The position numbers were made by a program, and so were the translations under genes. This document shows positions 2,519 through 39,340 of a stretch of 64,000 nt of DNA, piece by piece; the first letter of the stretch is position 1, and the number at the start of each line of letters is the position of its first letter. Source of the stretch: Squalus acanthias. Taxonomy: Eukaryota. Below the pieces are notes generated by a model. That model saw only the letters and a list, made by a program, of their open reading frames with translations, did not search any database and was not told the origin of the DNA. The stretch spans positions 127,598,001 through 127,662,000 of the forward strand of contig CM059431.1 in the NCBI GenBank assembly GCA_030390025.1, read 5' to 3'.

Positions 2519-3575
2519 TGTGGCGGATCGCCACCTAAACGAGCGCAATCCACTTTTCCGTCCATTGACAATAAATCGGGCACCTTGCCTTTAAGGCACC
2601 TTGGGGGAGAAATTCAGTATCGCCCCATTTGGGGCGCAATTATCGGCCGGGCGCAAAGATTAGCGCCTGGCGCTAATTATCGCCACCGACTGCAAACTTG
2701 ACTTTTATTGCCCCTGGAGGTGATTAGATTGCTAAATCAGGCGCTTCACACCTGTCTTAAGGCGCAAAGGCCGTGGAGTGAGGCGCTACCTCAGAGCGCT
2801 GGCAAAGCTCATGTGATGTCAGTCAGCAATGGAACACACAAACAATGGCCCGGGCCAGTTCTTAAAGGGGATGGTTAATCTTGCTTTCCATCCACATCCT
2901 GCTCATTGCAGCCTTGAATCTCAGCCTGGAGAGACCTGCACATCAAATGTGCTGGAAAGAACAATGGAGAGTACCAGGCAAAGAGCTCAGAGTGCAGCCC
3001 CCACAGACTCTTCTAAATCGATACAAGGAATGGCAGATCAAAATGAACCTGCAAAGTGCTGCTCAGTACCCAAAACTCCTTCACACAATGTTGAATCTCT
3101 CCAGAAGTCTCTCTCTCTCTCTCTCTCAGAATGCGTCGTTCAAAAATGGCACCAAGAATAAAAGGCAGGAAGCGGTCACCTTTAAATAGCGCTCCCCCTT
3201 TCCCTTCATGACTGCAGAACGCTCCCCTCAACCTGTCGTTGCTAGCGTCAGGCGGTAAGGCAGGGGGCGCCACTCAATTTCCGCTCCGGGGCGTTACCGG
3301 GGCGTTACGCACTCGACTGACGTCACGATCTGCCGGCGCAGGAGATCGTGGCAGTAGTGTTTAGCGCCGCCGCAAAATGTCTAGTTAAGGCGCTAACGGG
3401 AGGCGCAACCAACTGAATTTTCCCCCCTTGCCTTTAAGGCAGGAGAAAAGGAGTGGGCGGGGCCTCGGAACTTCCAGATTCTAGTGTTAGCAGCCATCTT
3501 AGCAAGCAGATGTAATAAAAAGCTTTTGTGTTCCACACATGGTCTCGGCCTTAATTCGTGTTTCGCGGCAGCCAC
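2519..3575 (+). repeat. 5' LTR of the nested Gypsy element (contains MITE-A)
   Basis: Matches 6492-7493 outside the MITE; AATAAA near 3514. Confidence 0.9.
2603..3426 (+). mobile_element. PIF/Harbinger-type MITE, family A, copy 1
   Basis: TIRs GGGGGAGAAATTCAG / CTGAATTTTCCCCC; 3-bp TSD CTT (2600-2602, 3427-3429); homologous to 25579-26479 and 30817-31689. Confidence 0.85.
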
Positions 3576-6471
3576 CGCTACCAATGGGAGTTCATCACTG
3601 CCATGGTGCTCTCGCCTCTCATCGGTGCAGATTTCCTGTGCGCCCACGGCCTACTGGTAGACATCCCTCGACACCGCCTCGTGGACATGAACACCATGTC
3701 CCCCATTCTGGGCGCCATGGCCCCCCGTCAACCCGCCGACATGGCGTCACAGTGCCACGCCCGGGCCACGGATGACTACTCGGCACTCTTGGCCGAATTC
3801 CCGGCCCTTACCAATCCGACCTTCTCTGCGGAGGCCGCCAAACACGGGGTGAAACACTTCATCCCCACCACAGGCCCCCCAGTGTACGCCCACGCCCGCA
3901 GGCTGGACCCCGCCAAACTGGAGATCGCGCGGACCGAGTTTGCCACCATGGAACAGCTCGGCATCATCCGCCGCTCCAACAGTCCCTGGGCCTCCCCACT
4001 CCACATCGCCCCCAAACCAGGCGGGGGTTGGCGCCCCTGCGGGGATTACCGCCGCCTCAACGACGCCACCACCCCTGATCGGTACCCCGTGCCGCACATC
4101 CAGGACTTCTCGGCTAGACTGGCCGGCTGCTCAGTCTTTTCCAAGGTCGACCTGGTGCGCGGCTACCACCAAGTCCCCGTCCACCCCGCGGACGTCCCCA
4201 AGACGGCCGTAATCACCCCCTTCGGCCTTTTCGAGTTCCTGCGGATGCCCTTCGGCCTCAAAAACGCGGCCCAGGCATTCCAACGGCTCATGGACTCGGT
4301 CCTTCGGGACCTGAAGTTCCTGTTCGTCCACCTGGACGACATCCTGGTAGCCAGTTCCTCCAAGCAGGAACACCTCGAACACCTTCGCATCCTGTTCGGG
4401 CGCCTCAGCGACCACGGGCTCATCATCAGCCCAGCCAAATGCCAGTTCGGCCTGGACAAGATCAACTTCCTCGGCCACCACATCACCCATGCTGGGGCCA
4501 TTCCCTGCCCACCAAGGTGCAGGCCGTCCAACAATTTCCACCGCACCACCATCAAAGGCTTCCAGGAGTTCCTCGGGATGGTGAATTTCTACAACCGCTT
4601 CATCCCCAAAGTGGCGTCCCTCATGAGGCCCCTGTATGAAGCCTTCCGGGGCAGGAGCGGCAAGATGGCGGTCGAATGGACGGCAGACGCATCAGCCGCC
4701 TTCGACTCCACCAAGACCGCGCTCGCCAACGCCACCCTGCTCGCGCACCCACGGCCCAATACCAGGGTAGCGCTCACCACGGACGCCTCCGACCACGCGG
4801 TCGGCGCCATGTATGAGCAGTGGGTCGACGGCGCCTGGCAACTACTTGCCTTCTTCAGCCGCCAACTACGCCCCCCGGAGGTCAAGTACAGCACCTTCGA
4901 CCACGAGCTCCTTGCGCTGTTCCTGGCGGTCCGCCATTTTCGTTTTTTGCTGGAGGGCCACCCCTTCACTGCGTTTGTCGACCACAAGCCCCTGACATTC
5001 GCAATGGCAAAGACAACCGACCCCTGGTCCGCCAGGCAGCAGCGCCAGCTCGCGGCAGTGTCCGAGTTCACCACGGACATCCAACACGTCTCCGGCCGAG
5101 ACAATGTGGTAGCTGACTGCCTCTCCCGCCCCGCCATCCATGCCGCACACCTGGCAGTCGACTATGCTCAACTCGCAGCAGACCAGATCACCGACCCTGA
5201 TCTGCTCTCCGCACCTACCAACCTACCAGGGCTACGCCTGGCCGACGTCGCCTGTGGCCCGACCACAGTCATGGTCAAGTACGACATATCCCTACGTCAA
5301 CCTCGGCCCATCGTCCCAGCGTCCTGGCACCGCCGGGTATTCGAGATTCTCCACAACCTCTCCCACCCCGGCACCCGCGCATCCCTCAAATTGGTAGCCA
5401 ACCGCTTTGTCTGGCGCGGCCTTCGCAAGGATGTGCGTACTTGGGCCAACTCCTGCCTAGCTTGCCAACAGGCCAAGGTGAAGAAACACACAAAAGCACC
5501 CCTCAAGGAGTTTACCGTCCCCTCGCGGAGATTCGACCACATCCACGTGGACATCGTTGGGCCGCTGCCGCCGTCGCAAGGCCACACGCACTTGCTGACG
5601 ATCGTTGACCGCACCACGCGCTGGCCCGATGCAATTCCACTGACCTCTACCACCACCGCCGACATCGCCAGAGCCTTCGTCAGCACCTGGGTCGCACGGT
5701 TCGGCGTCCCCTCCGACATGACGTCCGACAGAGGTCCGCAATTTACCTCTGAACTCTGGACCGTCGCACGCAATCTCGGGGTGACCATTCACCGCACCAC
5801 AGCGTACCACCCCCAAGCCAACGGACTGTGTGAGCGATTCCAAAGATCCTTGAAGGTATCTCTTCGAGCCAGCCTCCAAGACGGCGCCTGGACCGACCGA
5901 CTTCCGTGGGTCCTCCTCGGCCTGCGCACCGCGGTTAAAGAAGACCTCCACGCATCGGCAGCAGAGCTCGTGTACGGTCAGCCGCTGCGCGTACCCGGCG
6001 AGTTCCTGCCCACTGCCACGACACCCTGGTCAGCCGACCAGCAACGCCACGACTTCGCCGCACCGCGCTGCAGTTCGCCCCGGTGCCCATTGCCGACACG
6101 GCGAATCCACCTCACACGTCCCACTAAGCCTGCACCAGGCACGGTTCGTTTTCATCCGGCACGACGCCTACCGCGGACCCCTTCAACCCCTGTACGACGG
6201 GCCCTACAAGGTGCTACAGGCTGGGGACAAATTTTTCACCCTGCAAGTGGGCGACAGGACCGAAAAAGTGTCAGTTGACCGACTCAAGCCAGCACACTCG
6301 GAGCCCGGTGAGCAGGTCCCTGTAGCTCGTCCACCGCCATGCGGCCAACCTGCCCTCAAGCCGGTTCACCCGGCTGCTCCACGCCCGGCCGTTCCACGTC
6401 CACTGGCGTCCTACAAGAGCCGCTCCGGCCGGCCCATCAGACCGCCGCACCGTCTTGTCCACACCTCCTAA
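3558..6471 (+). pseudogene. pol: Gypsy pol (protease C-terminus, RT, RNase H, integrase)
   Basis: 906-aa ORF with IGADFL, WASPLH, CGDYRRLN, MPFGLKNA, HLDD (normally YLDD), TDAS, HHCC zinc motif, VDIVGPLP, SDRGPQF, NGLCER. Compensating frameshifts near 4505-4545; integrase tail (VSVDRLKPA) in ORF 6211-6471. Confidence 0.93.
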
Positions 6472-6491
6472 GCGGATTCTGGGGGGAGCTG

Positions 6492-7493
6492 TGTGGCGGA
6501 TCGCCACGGGCGCAATCCACTTTTCCGTCCGTGGACAATAAATCGGGCACCTTGCCTTTAAGGCACCTTGGGGTAAAAATTGAGTCGCGCCCCATTTGGG
6601 GCGCTAACCTCGCCGGGGCGCGACTTTTAGCGCCCCGAAAAAATTAGCGGCCCCGCGCCGGAACTTCAGTGGTTGCGCCCCAAGAGGGAAGCGGGGCGCA
6701 ACTGGAAGCACCCCGCATCCCTCTTGGGGCGCTGCGAGTGAATATCCTGGCGCTACGTGCCGCAGCGCCACGCGCTGCGGCATGTCGCGCCGCGGTATTG
6801 CAGGCCTTCCTCCCCTTCTTAAAGGGGAGGGGCCTTGCGCAGCGCGAACCGGGGCCCAGCTGGGCTCCCAGGGATCGGGAGTGCCGGCAAAAGAGCCCGG
6901 CACTCAAGAGAAGTGCCGGGCTCTTGGAGCGCAGCCGGCACTTCACGGTGGGGGGGCTTCACGGGGGCCGGGGACAGCAACGGGGGCAGGTGCTGGCAGG
7001 CGGCCAGCAACAAAAATGGCCGCCTGCCACCTCCCCTTTAAATATCGCCGCCCCGGCCGCACGTACGCCCCCCTGAACCCGTCGGACATAGCGTCTGGCG
7101 GTAAATCAGGGGGCGCGACTGAAGATCACGGCCGGGGCGCGAGCGGGGCGCTGCGCACGGCGATGACGTCATCGCCGGCGGCGCAGCGCCACAGGGCGCT
7201 ACCGGCTGCCGCCGCCGCTAACCTCCCACTAAATTTTTCGGGAGGCGTGGGCGGCGCTGCGCCCGGGCGTTAGCTGCTTTACGCCCCATTAGCGCCCATT
7301 TAAGGCGCTAACGGGAGGCGCAAGCAGCTGAATTTTTCCCCCCTTGCCTTTAAGGCAGGAGAAAAGGAGTGGGCGGGGCCTCAGAGCCTTCCAGATTCTA
7401 GTGTTAGCAGCCATCTTAGCAAGCAGATGTAATAAAAAGCTTTTGTGTTTCACACATGGTCTCGGCCTTAATTCGTATTTCGCGGCAGCCACA
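6492..7493 (+). repeat. 3' LTR of the nested Gypsy element (contains MITE-B)
   Basis: TGTGGC...GCCACA termini, preceded by PPT; matches the 5' LTR outside the MITE. Confidence 0.9.
6570..7342 (+). mobile_element. PIF/Harbinger-type GC-rich MITE, family B, copy 1
   Basis: TIRs GGGGTAAAAATTGAG / CTGAATTTTTCCCCC; TSD CTT (6567-6569, 7343-7345); homologous to 61388-62102. Confidence 0.85.
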
Positions 7494-8200
7494 ACAGGGT
7501 CATCTTTAATAACCTTACTGACATGTCATACCCTGACACAGATGCTATTGGACGGGAGGATAAAAGATGGGACAGTGAGTAGCAGTCGTATTGCCCGCTG
7601 GACATTGCTACTCTCCCAGATGAACCTGAGGATGGAAAGATTGGCGGAACCTAAGCTGGCCTTGGACATGATTTATCCAGGGATGAATCACATGTGCACG
7701 GTAGAAGGGGTATGGGACGTAGACCTGGGATTCCGGGCCGGGCAACATCCGACAGGGAGAGATATATATGTGGATGGGTCCAACTCGGTGACAAATGGAG
7801 AGCGCAGAACAGCGTGTGGGATTTATGACCCTGGGGCTGGAATAGAATAAAGTCATCAAACTCCCCAGCACACTGAGCGCACAGCAGGCCGAGCTGGCGG
7901 CTGTAGCTTATGTGGTCACACATCCCGAGGAATTCCCAACCCCCTACATAATATGCTCAGACTCGATGTTCACGGGCAATTCTTGCACTGAATATCTGGC
8001 AATATGGGCTAGACGAGGATTCAAGTCCGCCGACAGGGAACCGTTAGTAATCGCTCCACTGCTGAACACAATCCTGGGCGTTACGGGCAATAAAGAGGAG
8101 TATTACATTCAAAAAGTAAAGGCGCACTCAAAAACCGGGCCTAAATGGAAAGGTAACCAGAAGGCCGACGAGTTGGCAAAAAGGGGGCCAGGGAGAGAAT
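7494..8200 (+). pseudogene. pol: ERV pol continued: end of tether plus second, retroviral-type RNase H
   Basis: SSRIARWTLLL, then IYVDGS, SAQQAELAAV, ICSDS, W.RRGF, KVKAHSK, GNQKADELAK; frameshifted. Confidence 0.9.
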
Positions 8201-8416
8201 ACTTTGGGACCCGTACCGAGCTGGACAGATCGTGGCCATAAGGGATATGGAGGGCCCACAGGAGGTGAAGTTGCCCCTAGACCTGACCCAGGTTCAAGCA
8301 CAAGATACGGTTTTGAAAACCGTGATTAAGAAAAGGGTAGAAGGGGAACCAATTGAGGGTCCTTTTGGAGCAGCATATATAGTGGTCAAAGAGGGGATGC
8401 TGTTTAAAGGGGAAAG

Positions 8417-9694
8417 GTGGATCGTGCCCGGGGGGAGTTTATGCAGCTAGCTCACGGGGGTCCGGGAGCTGGACACCCAGGGCTGGAAACTACCTGGAAG
8501 AAAGTGGAAGAGGTGGGTTGGTGGCCTCATCTCAGGGAAGAGGTGAAGGAATATTGCAGTGAGTGCCTAGTGTGCGCTGTGAATAATCCAGACCCCCACC
8601 ATAGAAAGGCACCTTTGGGACACGTTAGGAGGGTAGAGGGACCATGGCATTCTATACAAATAGACTTCATTGGACCCCTGCCCACCACAAAAGCAGGCAA
8701 CAAGTATTGTCTAGTGTTGGTGGACGTTTTTTCTAAGTGGGTTGAGGCCTTCCCTTGTCGAATAGCCAGAGCGTTAAACACGGCTAATATCCGAGTAAGG
8801 GATGTGTTCTCCCAATGGGGATTGCCCCAGGTAGTGGAATCAGATCAGGGGAGCCATTTCACAGGACAAGTCATGCAGACCACCCTGAAACTTTTCGGGA
8901 TACAGGGAAAATGGCATGTGGCCCACAACCCCCAATCATCGGGAATAGTGGAAAGGATGAACCAGACTTTAAAGGAAAGGCTTAGGAAGGAGATAGGGGG
9001 GTACCCAAAGAAATGGGACAAGGTCCTGCCTCTAGTTCTCATGAATATCAGGGCCAGCCTCTCCAAAAGCGCAGGACACTCTCCATATGAGCTGATGGCC
9101 GGTAGGGCGATGAGGACCCCGACTCATGTGTTGGTACCGGTCCAAACCGAAGCTCAAACGAGGGAGATCAACCGGGACAGGTTCGTAAAAGACCTGTATG
9201 AGACCTTGAGGAAAGTACAATGGGAAGCTGCAAATAACATGGGAAGCCAGCACCAGAAGAATAGAATGCTGTTAGAGCCACAGAAAGTACAGGAGTGGAA
9301 GGTAGGGGACCAGGTCATGGTGAGAAACTATGCCCGGGTAGGGGCTTTCGAGCCACTGTACATGGGGCCATACAGTATATTGAACAAGGCAAGTCCTATG
9401 GTTTACGCAGTGCAGCTGCCAAGATGGACAAAGTGGTTCCACATTAATCAATGTAAACTCTATGACCCCGGGAAGAGGGGAATAAAACGAACCAGAGCCC
9501 AGGGAACGATCATGAGTTTGACCAATGTAAGTTTTCCTCCCATGTTGTGGCATGATGATGAAAACCCAGAGAGCGGAGCGGTGAGAAGGAGCAGTCGAAC
9601 ACCCCGACCTAGGGTGCCTTGGACGCCTCCTCGCACACCGACCCCGAGCCGCAAGCGGTCCCAACCGGACAGTAAGGAAAAAGGGACGCTGTGA
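8417..9694 (+). CDS. pol: Retroviral integrase (open 425-aa frame; frameshift at its 5' edge)
   Basis: H..H..CLVC zinc motif, QIDFIGPLP, ESDQGSHF, SGIVERMN (DDE triad), GPY/SH3-like C-terminus and a basic Arg/Pro-rich tail. Confidence 0.9.
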   Translation: MDRARGEFMQLAHGGPGAGHPGLETTWKKVEEVGWWPHLREEVKEYCSECLVCAVNNPDPHHRKAPLGHVRRVEGPWHSIQIDFIGPLPTTKAGNKYCLVLVDVFSKWVEAFPCRIARALNTANIRVRDVFSQWGLPQVVESDQGSHFTGQVMQTTLKLFGIQGKWHVAHNPQSSGIVERMNQTLKERLRKEIGGYPKKWDKVLPLVLMNIRASLSKSAGHSPYELMAGRAMRTPTHVLVPVQTEAQTREINRDRFVKDLYETLRKVQWEAANNMGSQHQKNRMLLEPQKVQEWKVGDQVMVRNYARVGAFEPLYMGPYSILNKASPMVYAVQLPRWTKWFHINQCKLYDPGKRGIKRTRAQGTIMSLTNVSFPPMLWHDDENPESGAVRRSSRTPRPRVPWTPPRTPTPSRKRSQPDSKEKGTL

Positions 9695-9769: not shown

Positions 9770-9798
9770 TTGCTATTTTTCTTTTCCTTTATTTGCAG
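9770..9798 (+). promoter_or_regulatory. Putative env splice acceptor
   Basis: Long polypyrimidine tract TTTTTCTTTTCCTTTATTTGCAG ending at 9798, 25 nt upstream of the signal-peptide ATG at 9824. Confidence 0.6.
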
Positions 9799-9823: not shown

Positions 9824-12419
9824 ATGGAATGCACTCTGTGGCTGGGCCTGTTGGTAATCCTGATCAGATCAGGACAGATGGAGCGAGGCGACATCGAGAT
9901 GTCATTTACTTCCGGGTGTATGGGAGGAGCCGGGCCCACCGTAACACAGGGAGGTAGAGCACGGGGCACTGACGGGATAGCTACATACTTCCATGAGGGA
10001 GTATGGCCGGGTTGGTTAGGGTCAAATTCCACTAAATATTCCAATTACACTGGTTACAAATTCGGTGAAGCATCAGTGCCCAGCCCCAAATTAAATATCA
10101 CCACCAAAAAGGTACTGGTGAACGAGGGAAGGCAAGTGTGCCTAGAATGCTGGGGAAGTTCCTCTGTGGGATGGTGGTGGTGGCTACAGAAAACAGACAA
10201 GGCAAAGGGTAATGAATCCATGGATTGGGAAAGATTGGGGAACAACTCGTACAGATCGATTGCGGGGACAAAGGGGGGGTGAAATTATGTTGGGACAAGT
10301 GGTGAAAGGAGGAACAAGGGGTTTATGTGTGTGTGGGAGGATCGGAACGTAAATGCCAGAAGCGGGTGTCCATCGCTTTTAAACGGCAATGGCAAGATTC
10401 CGGGTCTGAAATAGGCTGGACTCAGAGTTTCGATTCGTGTGTGGTCACAAATCCTCCAAACGCCGTCAATGCTACCGAACTAGTAGCGCACAATAAGAAA
10501 CCCCTACCATCAGCCCCAAAGACACGGGATAAAGAGGTTAAGTGCCCCATAACGACACCCGGACCTAGGAATGGGTTCATATTGATTCCAACAGGGAAGG
10601 TGTTGTACCATGACGTGCATTATGAGATAGCATCTGTTACCCTTAATTTGGCAAAGGTACGGCTACCCCGGTGGTACCCAGCTGAAACGAAAAAATAGTA
10701 CGAGAAACTATTAAAAGAAATGTGCCGGCAATTCTACGAGTTGAACTATGGGGAAGAAAGTCGTATGGTCCAAAAATGTGCGGGTTAGGTTGATTTGGCT
10801 ATGATAAATTGACCCTTAGTGTTAGGGGGGGATTAAATATGTGGGGTTATGGGGATAGGATAGGAAGGGATATGTTAGGGGGAATTAAATACGTGGGGTT
10901 ACGGGGATAGGGTGGGATATGTGTCGGTGCAGGCTCGATGGGGATTCTGTGTGAGAAAGCAGGGATAGGGTACTGGATTTGGATGATCAGCCATGATCGT
11001 ATTGAATGGTGGAGCAGGCTCGACGGGCCGAATGGCCTACTCCTGCTCCTAGTTTCTATGTTTCTATGTTTCTATGTTTCTATGATTTGTATAAACGCGC
11101 TGACAACAGTCACACCGGTTTGGGGAGACGGAAGAGGAGATTGATCAATGACGCGGCCACGGTGTTTAATACGGGAACGTCACTGGTCAATTGTATAGAT
11201 GATGCCCAGCTGCAAACGCAGGTCAATACCTTACGGGATCAGCTAAAGAGGATACTGGGGGAGGGTAATGAGATTGAGGGACAGGAATTACAAGAAGACC
11301 AAGTAATGACCATGCACCTAAAAGAATTGATAGCTGAGCTGGAAACTCACGCCCAGACCATAAACAACTTCATAAAGGAGGACCGGAACGCGTTGGACCG
11401 GGCCGCGCAAGATGATGCGTGTGTTATGTACGGTGCCTGGTTATTAACCGAGGGGTGTAGTAATTTAGAGGATCTGGAGCAAGGTCGCGTACCATCGTGG
11501 ATTGACAACAGACACCTAAGAGCCTTGAGCACTTATGACAATCTCATGAACCCGTGCCAGCTACGGTTGGCCTCTGAAGCGTACCCAGTCCCAATCATTT
11601 GTGATCAGTACAACCAAACCATAATGGGAATAGTTCTCAGGATGCCAGTGATGGATCAGTCACAACGGTCAGTGCCGGTATATCGGGTGGAAAATGTTGG
11701 TATTATCCGATGTGGGGTATATGTGCGGCATCATGGGGCACCTCCGTATGTGGTTAAGTGGGGGAACTCCATAACCGGCACAGATCTGAAGGGATGTCAG
11801 GAAAGGGGTGCACATGTCGTGTTGTGCCCACATCACCTGAATGTGTTCGACCGACCGGTATGTGGTTTTGAATCTGAAAGCGCACAACCGATCAACTGTA
11901 CCATGGAGGTGATGGTTCAGAGGCACGTCCCAGGTTGTCTATGAGGGAAACGGAACCTACTGTGTCACCACCAGTGTGAATCAGTATAGGGTACACAATG
12001 ATACCTGGTGTCCAATTTACGACTCGACCTTTTGTTTTAAACCCCCGATAGAGGTTCAAGTAGCACAGGAAAGGATAATCCCTATTTCAGATCACACCTC
12101 AGTAAATCTCACAGTGAGTGGTATTTTACCAAACCTCCAAGATTATATATCACATTTTGGGTATGATATCCCACCATTACCTGAGCATTTGACAAAACTG
12201 GTAAAGGATCTGGAGCTTTCCCAAAAACATTACTACACTCTCCAGCAGGAAAACAGAGAAACGCGAGAGGAGATCAGGGAAATGACCACCCCACCTTGGT
12301 GGGACATTGGGTTTGATATTGAAATTCCTCCCTGGATCAGAATTGCCTCACATGTATTGATAATTGTGCAATTAATTATGGTGTTGTATCTGTTCAGGTT
12401 ATCGTGTAAAACAAAATGA
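9824..12419 (+). pseudogene. env: Envelope glycoprotein, class I fusion (F-like) type, with Ig-like N-terminal segment
   Basis: Signal peptide MECTLWLGLLVILI; furin site RRKRR (11126-11140); heptad-like helix; Cys-rich region; C-terminal helix and TM segment WIRIASHVLIIVQLIMVLYLF. Stops, frameshifts and a SINE insertion. Confidence 0.8.
10768..11083 (+). mobile_element. 5'-truncated HE1-like SINE inserted in env
   Basis: Nearly identical to 39055-39340; ends in the CR1-like tail GATCAGCCATGATC...(TTTCTATG)n. Confidence 0.85.
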
Positions 12420-12582
12420 AGGGTAAAAAGGGAAAAACAGGAAAGACTGTATAAAGGGGATTTGGGATTATAGAATCAAATGTATAGAGTGTGTAAAAAA
12501 ATGTGAGATTTGGCTGGGACCGACAATGCACCCCCACCGCAGAAGAATGGACGTAAGTAATATCTCTAATGTAAGAGATAAT

Positions 12583-13323
12583 GGCCCAGAAATTGATCTC
12601 GCTCTGTTCCCGCGGGGGTAAGGAGCAGGCGCGATCTCTCACTCCGCGTTGGCTTTTTCAGATCCAGCTCGCACGAACTTGATGTTCCAGACATCAGCTG
12701 TGCAGTGCTTGCGTATCCCACCGGCGTAGTGAATTCGTGCGAGCTGTGGGATCACGTGACTCAGTTAGAGCCAATGGCAGCACACCATCTTCCATTCATA
12801 AGTTTCACATACGTGCTGTGAAAGCTATGAATCTTACACCCCCCCAAAATAACAGCTAAACCTCAATTAAATTAAAAAAAACACATCACATTAATAAAAT
12901 AAGTATAGTTAAATAAATTAACCATTTTAAATAAAAAATTAAATTTTTGAAAAAATTTAAAATCTTTTAAAAAGTTATAAAAATAAACTTACCTGTCTTT
13001 AAAGTCTCTAAAAAAGATATACCTGTTAAAAAAAATTCAAAAAAATACTTAATTCACTACTTACCTTGTTAAAATTGGGTCTTACTCCTCCTTTTTCCAT
13101 TTCTAAAATCTTCCGTCCTTACCTGCGCGTCCAAAGCACTAAGTGCACAGCGTGCGCGCAGCCTGTAGCGCGCACGCGATGCACCGAGGAACCGCCCCCT
13201 TTTCCAAAGACCAAGTGCCGGTTTTCAGCGCATGCGCAGGGCATGCAGAAAACGGCAATTGGAGAGAGAATACGCGAGAGTACGCAGTGCGTACTCTCGC
13301 GCAGCGGGATCAATTTTTGGCCC
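12583..13323. mobile_element. Harbinger-like MITE with AT-rich core, inserted just before the ERV polypurine tract
   Basis: Imperfect TIRs GGCCCAGAAATTGATC / GATCAATTTTTGGCCC; flanks AAT / ATT. Confidence 0.65.
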
Positions 13324-13338
13324 ATTAAAGGGGGGACA

Positions 13339-14274
13339 TGTAGGATCGATTCTTCCCCCACAATGGTAAAAATATTGGACTATGAAATATAAAAACCCAG
13401 AACTGCAGAGCTGGCAAAAAGTGCTCGGCAATAAATGGTTAATTCAAACATTGCAGCCGAAACTACGAATCTAAAATCTGAACAAGAACATCTGCATATT
13501 CATTTACCTTAAGGGATTACATTGTCCACGTTAGACCATGGCCCCCGAATAACCAGTTTCAGTGCAGGCCTAGACAATGGGCCGGGCCTTGAACCTTTTG
13601 AATACGAATACTAACAGAAACCAACAACTTTGCATATGCAGTCACTTTGGGAAGGTTGCATTGTCAGAAAGGTATCTCTAATCAATGGACAATACCAGGG
13701 ACAATTCACACATTTTGAAATCAATCGTATGCTCAGGAGGGGGCCAGGAAATGTGTGTCAAGATACTGCAAGTTGGTTTTGGTTTAAAGTAAGAGCACTT
13801 CGAAGACAGTGGTGTGGGAAGCCAATGGCAGAACAGCGAACACAAAGATTCGGGCCTACAATCAACTCCAAGAGACAGCCGATCGGGAGTGGTGATTGTA
13901 TGTTTCAGTCAAATCATAGAGGGGGCTTTTATGATTGAGTCTGAGTAAGTTTGTGACTTTCAGTCAGATCACAATAAGGGTTTTGTGATTGAGTTTGGGT
14001 AACTTTATATGTAACAGTCAAATCGCGGACGGGTTTAACTGTCATATTGTGTCGATGCAAATGACCCTTGCGTAAGGGTTTGTATTTTGGGGTTGTTAGT
14101 CTAATATAAATCATAGGGATTTATACTGGGGAAGTAATTGTGTGTGTGTGTTCAATAAACAAACAAATCAAAGGTTGAGCCAAAACCCTGTACCGTGTGT
14201 ATTTTGTTCTTATAAATCCTGATGTCCAAGAACTGTGTGTAATGGGGGACCAGTATCGGGGAAACCCCCTTACA
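13339..14274 (+). repeat. 3' LTR of the ERV
   Basis: Preceded by PPT AAAGGGGGGA (13327-13336); starts TGTAGG, has AATAAA at 14155 and ends CCTTACA; right end inferred because the 5' LTR is not in the window. Confidence 0.65.
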
Positions 14275-38901: not shown

Positions 38902-39340
38902 GGGCAACATGGTGGCATAGTGGTTAGCACTGGTGCCTCACAGCGCCAGGGACCCGGGTTCGAATCTGACCTCGGGTGACTGTCTGTGTGGAGTTTGCAC
39001 ATTCTCCCCATGTCTGCGTGGGTTTCCTCCGGGTGCTCCGGTTTCCTCCCACAGTCCAAAAATGTGCGGGTTAGGTTGATTTGGCTATGATAAATTGACC
39101 CTTAGTGTTAGGGGGGGATTAAATATGTGGGGTTATGGGGATAGGATGGGATATGTTAGGGGGAATTAAATACATGGGGTTGCGGGGGTAGGGTGGGATA
39201 TGTGTACTGTGGGGATTAAAGCAGGGACAGGGTACTGGATTTGGATGATCAGCCATGATCGTATTGAATGGTGGAGCAGGCTCGACGGGCCGCATGGCCT
39301 ACTCCTGCTCCTAGATTCTATGTTTCTATGTTTCTATGTT
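38902..39340 (+). mobile_element. Full-length HE1-like tRNA-derived SINE (V-SINE type)
   Basis: A box TGGCATAGTGG, B box GGTTCGAATC, V-SINE core TGTGTGGAGTTTGCACATTCTCCCC..., CR1-derived tail (TTTCTATG)n. Confidence 0.88.

Follow-up and report, generated by a model that had tools for sequence, protein, structure and literature searches.

The fusion protein F of paramyxoviruses needs a separate attachment protein, and because the published F-type envelope (Env) proteins of lokiretroviruses (Loki) considered here carry no head of their own, it is an open question how retroviruses with such an Env find their hosts. In the six Loki Env proteins presented in the accessible part of PMC7947760, the motif that opens the F2 subunit directly follows the signal peptide. 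In gamma-type Env, a receptor-binding domain (RBD) of immunoglobulin (Ig) fold is followed by a proline-rich linker, and RBDs have moved between lineages by intragenic recombination; within this group, RBD-C is defined by the absence of the B-F disulfide and by expanded VRA and VRB loops, and Env-Dbi carries a SIRP-like IgV RBD captured from a host SIRP gene (10.1101/2024.03.17.585361, as far as its accessible text goes). F itself has been described, in the accessible part of PMC11468914, as a minimal scaffold to which binding modules can be added, N-terminally in the coronavirus spike and between the subunits in foamy virus Env. Here we analyse a 64-kb stretch of Squalus acanthias DNA (the window; contig CM059431.1, genome size 3.7 Gb), where positions 9824-12473 are taken up by a disrupted env from an endogenous retrovirus present in multiple copies. 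All positions are those of the window's forward strand, on which the proviral features given below lie. We consider it reasonably likely that this env belonged to a decayed class III retrovirus resembling snakehead retrovirus (SnRV), and that it encoded an Ig-cored receptor-binding head, a hinge and an F-type fusogen, with heads exchanged between families. A head ahead of F, of a kind that varies among close relatives, is a candidate answer to the question of host finding.

The env product opens with a hydrophobic stretch after the ATG at 9824, recognised by eye as a signal peptide (9824-9880), which is followed by a head module of about 190 amino acids (9881-10440) with eight conserved cysteines. 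Comparison with relatives delimits an N-terminal subdomain of 67 amino acids (9881-10081), which contains the first conserved cysteine and the motifs HEG and GSNS and shares 27-39 of its 67 residues with each of six relatives. The core of the module is an Ig-like domain of V/I type with six conserved cysteine positions (10082-10380). Behind it, the alignment and its cysteine columns show a conserved stretch of 21 amino acids (10381-10440) with the eighth cysteine at its end, which may close the module against the first cysteine. A linker rich in Pro, Thr and Lys (10441-10542) then leads to the F2-like subunit. An earlier note on this DNA had placed an Ig-like domain at 10085-10385, followed by the linker and an F-like region. 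Its location and order stand; the domain, however, starts at about 10082, lies inside the larger module and is separated from the linker by the 21 conserved residues.

The peptides quoted in the earlier note were found where it had placed them, in two frames joined at a run of seven G (10273-10279): the first half of the domain runs in a single frame from 10085 to this run and the second half in another from about 10279 to 10380. In the window copy the domain is disrupted by this frameshift and by a stop at 10303-10305. Across the join, the B-strand Cys (10148), the C-strand Trp (10181) and the F-strand Cys (10330) with its Tyr corner stand at Ig spacing and are kept in relatives, which bears out the claim that V/I-set motifs appear in order with plausible spacing. 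The motif [DEGQ]xGxYxC occurs a single time across the six frames of the window, within this domain. When a 100-amino-acid segment of a natural copy was shuffled, the ordered pattern (hydrophobic-x-C, W and acidic-x-G-x-Y-x-C at Ig spacings) arose in 42 of 200,000 shuffles, a figure that overstates the odds, since the pattern was written after the sequence had been seen.

Searches for the fold pointed the same way. All eight matches of a profile of the domain against the PDB were V-set domains of CD8-alpha or CRTAM over the predicted span (E 0.011-0.11), and Pfam Ig_3 matched two relatives (E 0.0027 and 0.0085). The ten best family-assigned matches in the ESM Atlas were all Ig, with a top score of 0.93, and fold searches with a model of the head returned lists made up mostly of antibody, T-cell receptor, CD8 and titin domains. 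Several observations weigh against this assignment and would suit a beta-rich viral fold that merely mimics Ig motifs: every Ig score is sub-threshold, the best Ig_3 score being 18.6 bits against a curated cut-off of 30, and the AlphaFold model of the head is of low confidence and was aligned partly via its N-terminal strands. Pfam searches with the window's own env pieces gave neither an Ig nor an F match, and a PDB search with the single Ig sequence of one copy gave three matches, one of them Ig, at E 0.06 or above. Since the PDB profile, Pfam and language-model features agree on Ig over the same span independently of that model, and the Cys, Trp and Tyr-corner spacing fits, we regard such mimicry as quite improbable and an Ig-superfamily (V/I-type) fold as highly probable, if short of proof. 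A search for longer homologues found none, none of 96 pattern matches in viral contigs was confirmed, and a fold search in a viral library gave no match. The RBD structures of murine leukaemia virus (MLV), feline leukaemia virus (FeLV) and Env-Pb1 were absent among the matches listed in the PDB profile and fold searches, which leaves a link to them possible.

The two frames raise the question of whether the bridged domain is an artefact, with its halves taken from different frames or genes. The env 5' region had 397 candidate places in the genome, 40 of which were scored (91-95% identity), and 19 other copies, 93-96% identical over 10085-10385, were fetched. The B- and F-strand Cys codons share one frame in 12 of these 19, with no stop between them in six; the other seven are frameshifted as in the window, as might be expected from a mutation-prone homopolymer, from an early defect held in common or from an error of assembly. 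One natural copy is open for 435 amino acids and includes signal peptide, Ig, linker, F2, cleavage region and fusion peptide. Beyond this genome, a protein of the skate Rhinoraja longicauda (45% identity over 93%) carries the whole module and F2 in one chain, as do proteins from further assemblies; a protein of the sawshark Pristiophorus japonicus has the module, and whale-shark models have its first part. Over the Ig domain identity is 39-51%, and all eight cysteines are kept in four of the five relatives that span the module and seven of the eight in the fifth. A genome search with this skate sequence led to another and younger family, 77-79% identical to the skate protein, in which 22 of 104 match rows lie in open frames of 789 amino acids; 20 have no stop in the match, and these stop-free matches cover head, F2 and fusion peptide. 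The shifted window copy and its seven companions are what an artefact would predict, but the in-frame copies, the relatives that join both halves and the 789-amino-acid frames refute it, and we give it practically no chance. The earlier note had named placement of the two segments in different frames as an observation that would count against it; what the copies and relatives give is one frame shared with the F-like region and a module present outside Squalus. The frameshift in the window is therefore decay, given that other copies keep both Ig cysteines in frame and open relatives exist.

Some further features of these sequences deserve mention. One copy (L014) and the skate model (P0001) are both without the middle of F1, at similar places, by an in-frame deletion in L014 and by a deletion or a predicted intron in P0001; head, fusion peptide and anchor region stay in one frame, and similar gaps occur in several match rows of the 77-79% family. 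In two models of Pristiophorus japonicus, env pieces are joined to host genes (P0007 and P0009; Niban-like and zinc finger), likely as annotation chimeras or exonised pieces of endogenous retrovirus. The 77-79% identity between shark and skate in the young 789-amino-acid family may reflect cross-species transmission.

Downstream of the linker, translation shows the start of an F2-like subunit with the motif C-P-x-x-x-x-G-P-x-N-G (10543-10763; stop at 10696-10698), a furin-type cleavage site (11126-11137) and an F1-like subunit (11138-12473; ESM Atlas matches and alignment) that runs from a fusion peptide through a heptad repeat and Cys-rich domains to a membrane anchor (at about 12336-12398) and a tail, with a frameshift near 11935 and a stop at 12417-12419. 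Signal peptide, furin site, fusion peptide, heptad repeats and C-terminal anchor are all visible by eye, and of the marks of gamma-type Env (CXXC in the surface subunit, an immunosuppressive domain and CX6CC in the transmembrane subunit) the CX6CC motif was not seen by eye in the env translations. With a natural copy, the ESM Atlas gave clusters of Baculo_F, Gypsy env and Fusion_gly (paramyxovirus F) at 0.92-0.94 (196-209 features in common). Profile searches of Pfam and the PDB gave no match for the F part. We regard an F-type fold of the lokiretrovirus and paramyxovirus kind as highly probable for the C-terminal part. The opening motif of F2 is similar to that of the six Loki Env proteins, and since in those it directly follows the signal peptide, the 230 residues ahead of it here are an addition to the Loki/F plan. 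A genomic repeat of about 320 nucleotides splits the F region (10764-11083); by blastn it is missing in four of four other copies compared, and a further copy of it lies in the window at about 39054-39340.

The position ahead of F is filled by different modules in different families. A search of the genome with an F-type Env of Mustelus (P0018) gave 66 places, nearly all matching in the F part only. We examined 24 loci for heads and compared eight loci and four proteins pairwise. Counting the window type and the P0016/P0018 type along with the 24 loci, at least six different heads were distinguished, all followed by a Pro/Thr linker and one common F2 motif, and Pro/Thr-rich linkers precede F in other env families too; in many of the 24 loci the upstream frame is short or broken. 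In the first 150 amino acids of F the families L049/L027, L029/L043 and L030 show 87-89% identity, and their heads gave weak local scores of 19-51 (z at most 3.8), against 642 and 1299 within families. The heads of L049/L027 and L029/L043 begin with in-frame signal peptides of their own, and that of L030 is visible for 73 amino acids only. The window-type head aligned with none of seven other loci or two other proteins (z at most 1.6), and for the P0016/P0018 head a profile comparison aligned the F parts only. At the level of sequence, different heads on a near-identical F are thus shown, and since unrelated front modules sit on F parts that are 87-89% identical, the position ahead of F is that of an exchangeable head. 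Recombination at the hinge would account for the exchange.

The C-x-x-C spacing seen by eye in the head of L023/L027/L049 had suggested a diverged homologue of the Ig domain. This was rejected: hhalign gave a probability of 0.07% (E 0.72), pairwise comparison gave z below 1, and neither PDB nor Pfam returned an Ig match. The head of this type (L049:716-1555, L027, L023, L032) has a Cys-rich N-terminus and an internal furin-type site before a beta-rich part, and no family or structure match was found for it. In many copies of another family (L022, L026, L046, L050, L051, L052) an L049-type linker is joined to a very short head, apparently a remnant that keeps little of the L029/L043 head. Overall, F-type env families form a large radiation in this genome, with thousands of first-look candidates, the young 789-amino-acid family among them.

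On this basis we propose that the precursor would have been a class I fusion protein consisting of signal peptide, disulfide-bonded head of about 190 amino acids, Pro/Thr hinge, F2, furin site, F1 and anchor. We infer that furin would cut it into a surface subunit (head, hinge and F2) and the membrane subunit F1, and the head would be held by four disulfides: the canonical B-F, B-E, A-G and first-to-last. The head would bind a host surface protein and trigger or position F, which would drive fusion, and viruses of the radiation would have swapped heads at the hinge. By analogy with the Ig-fold RBD and proline-rich region of type-C gammaretroviral Env and with the N-terminal modules of the coronavirus spike, and from its position, the linker and the exchange, the head is probably a receptor-binding domain. 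The earlier note had left receptor binding and immune modulation side by side; the former is favoured, since families with 87-89% identity in F carry different front modules. An immune-receptor module captured from a host, which on virions and on infected cells would act as decoy or immunomodulator while another part of Env mediates entry, would suit the best sequence matches, which are V-set domains of T-cell surface proteins; the headless Loki Env proteins suggest that an F core may enter without a head, and the SIRP-like capture cited above offers a precedent. Yet the CD8-alpha matches are at background level for Ig folds, and unrelated modules fill the same slot in sister families, as expected of a tropism determinant. 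Moreover, no host donor was found at E of 0.001 or below among 1.84 billion protein representatives, the 15 matches all being env-like. With the best PDB match at E 0.011, a capture, if there was one, is old, and the earlier claim that the virus took the domain from a host finds no support here. We therefore consider an immune module unlikely. Alternatively, the head might be a structural cap or spacer, a glycan shield or prefusion stabiliser with no specific ligand, for which several N-glycosylation sequons, extra cysteines, even conservation across the module and the many copies of short-headed relatives could be cited; however, a packing role hardly explains unrelated folds in one slot on near-identical F, and we think it rather improbable. 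For a receptor-binding head, fold and binding are directly testable, because the head is small and natural open frames exist.

The env lies in the 3' three quarters of a decayed provirus that starts upstream of the window and ends at 14274. Translation and blastn to other copies place the last part of gag, which includes a CCHC zinc knuckle, at 1-570, followed by protease (598-1125; Pfam RVP, E 2.6e-4) and a class III, SnRV-like reverse transcriptase (RT) at 1052-2518 (RVT_1, E 1e-17), interrupted by a stop and an insertion at about 1741-1974. Nested insertions then break pol at 2519-7493 and are absent from the other copies compared by blastn; they consist of an inverted-repeat element that holds a Gypsy-like long terminal repeat (LTR) retrotransposon with a pol frame of 907 amino acids (3555-6278). 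Pol resumes with the end of the tether (degenerate RNase H) and a second RNase H (7494-8241); Pfam assigns RT_RNaseH_2 to 1978-2535 (E 3.9e-24) and RNase_H to 7846-8238 (E 1.1e-13), a dual RNase H. The integrase (8408-9694; Integrase_H2C2, E 1.6e-14; rve, E 5.2e-13) is followed by a likely env splice acceptor, put at 9775-9798 from its pyrimidine tract and AG. Downstream of env, comparison with other copies places the polypurine tract and 3' LTR at 13326-14274 (LTR 13339-14274, TG...CA). Env and the polypurine tract are separated by inserted DNA (12581-13323) that has terminal inverted repeats and is probably a non-autonomous DNA transposon. The LTRs of one copy are 94.1% identical over 979 nucleotides, and three other pairs gave no full LTR pair; the primer-binding site of the former copy presumably matches tRNA-Arg.

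Against the PDB, the RT matched best a protease-RT chain (E 5e-31), which we take to be that of a foamy virus, then MLV (6e-20) and Ty3 (7e-15). Four RTs were counted by hand over two ungapped blocks (100 amino acids) of a published alignment; identities per 100 residues were 60 for SnRV, 47 for Loki-Lca, 44 for feline foamy virus and 40 for Loki-Str. The window RT has P-Q-G-F where the Loki RTs shown have P-F-G-Y/L. Membership in the lokiretroviruses was rejected on these two grounds, and from sequence the element is best read as a class III, SnRV-like endogenous retrovirus that carries a Loki-type F Env. Six cartilaginous-fish genomes have been screened, none of them marked as holding lokiretroviruses in the accessible part of PMC7947760, and an SnRV-like lineage has been reported in elephant shark (PMC6001957 and PMC4977317, accessible parts). 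That a canonical SnRV-like pol goes together with an F-type Env, in hosts screened without Loki finds, bears on whether lokiretroviruses and canonical retroviruses gained env independently.

How does this Env compare with those described? Gamma- and alpha-type Env with Ig heads are already known, as are F scaffolds that bear added heads, and the Ig-plus-F envelope that the earlier note called unusual is less so in view of the Ig RBDs with their proline-rich linker (10.1101/2024.03.17.585361) and the N-terminal modules on F (PMC11468914), as the accessible parts of both describe them. In the openly accessible literature searched, no description was found of an Ig-headed Env of F type or from sharks, nor of the combination of a canonical-type Ig head, F-type Env, SnRV-like pol, elasmobranch hosts and heads that differ among close relatives. 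In their accessible parts, a survey of gamma-type Env in anamniotes (10.1101/2021.11.23.469661) does not cover an F-type Ig-headed Env, the main text of 10.1101/2024.03.17.585361 does not mention sharks, and an Ig head is absent from what is described of errantiviruses (10.1101/2023.10.26.564294), of Odin (PMC9040795), in the DIGS study (10.1101/2023.10.17.562709) and in PMC13709493.

With gamma-type RBD-C (MLV, FeLV and Env-Pb1) and Env-Dbi the shark Env shares an Ig fold at the N-terminus of the surface subunit, and with type-C gamma Env also the proline-rich linker behind it. In contrast, the shark fusogen is of F type, where those systems have gamma- or alpha-type fusogens; the shark Ig keeps the B-F Cys pair, which Env-Dbi has and RBD-C lacks, and so falls outside RBD-C as defined; and, unlike the SIRP-derived domain of Env-Dbi, it has no detected host donor and is set in a larger module of eight cysteines. 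Lokiretrovirus Env (PMC7947760, accessible part) resembles the shark Env in its F-like plan of signal peptide, RxKR site, fusion peptide, coiled coil and anchor and in an F2 that opens with a motif of the P-G-P-x-x-G-I/L-x-L type; dual RNase H is likewise present in both, being common to all retroviruses. The two differ in that the six Loki proteins are headless, whereas the shark Env is headed and its RT nearer to SnRV. Toward SnRV and clade Huo the likeness is in the RT, and the accessible parts of PMC6001957 and PMC4977317 hold nothing on F-type Env or Ig heads in that clade. The plan of scaffold plus module is shared with the subclass Ib fusogens, namely foamy virus Env, paramyxovirus and pneumovirus F and the coronavirus spike (PMC11468914, accessible part); the shark module, however, contains Ig, is attached to the F of a retrovirus and varies from one close relative to the next, while the foamy RBD is internal and of another fold. 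As a tentative joint reading, which could well prove wrong, cartilaginous fish would host a large, recently active SnRV-like radiation whose paramyxovirus-type F carries a built-in, freely exchanged attachment head; the unrelated heads would number six or more and include a vertebrate Ig domain captured long ago. This would be a third solution, beside the coronavirus spike and foamy Env, for adding receptor binding to F, and the first for any retrovirus that belongs to neither the Loki nor the foamy lineage.
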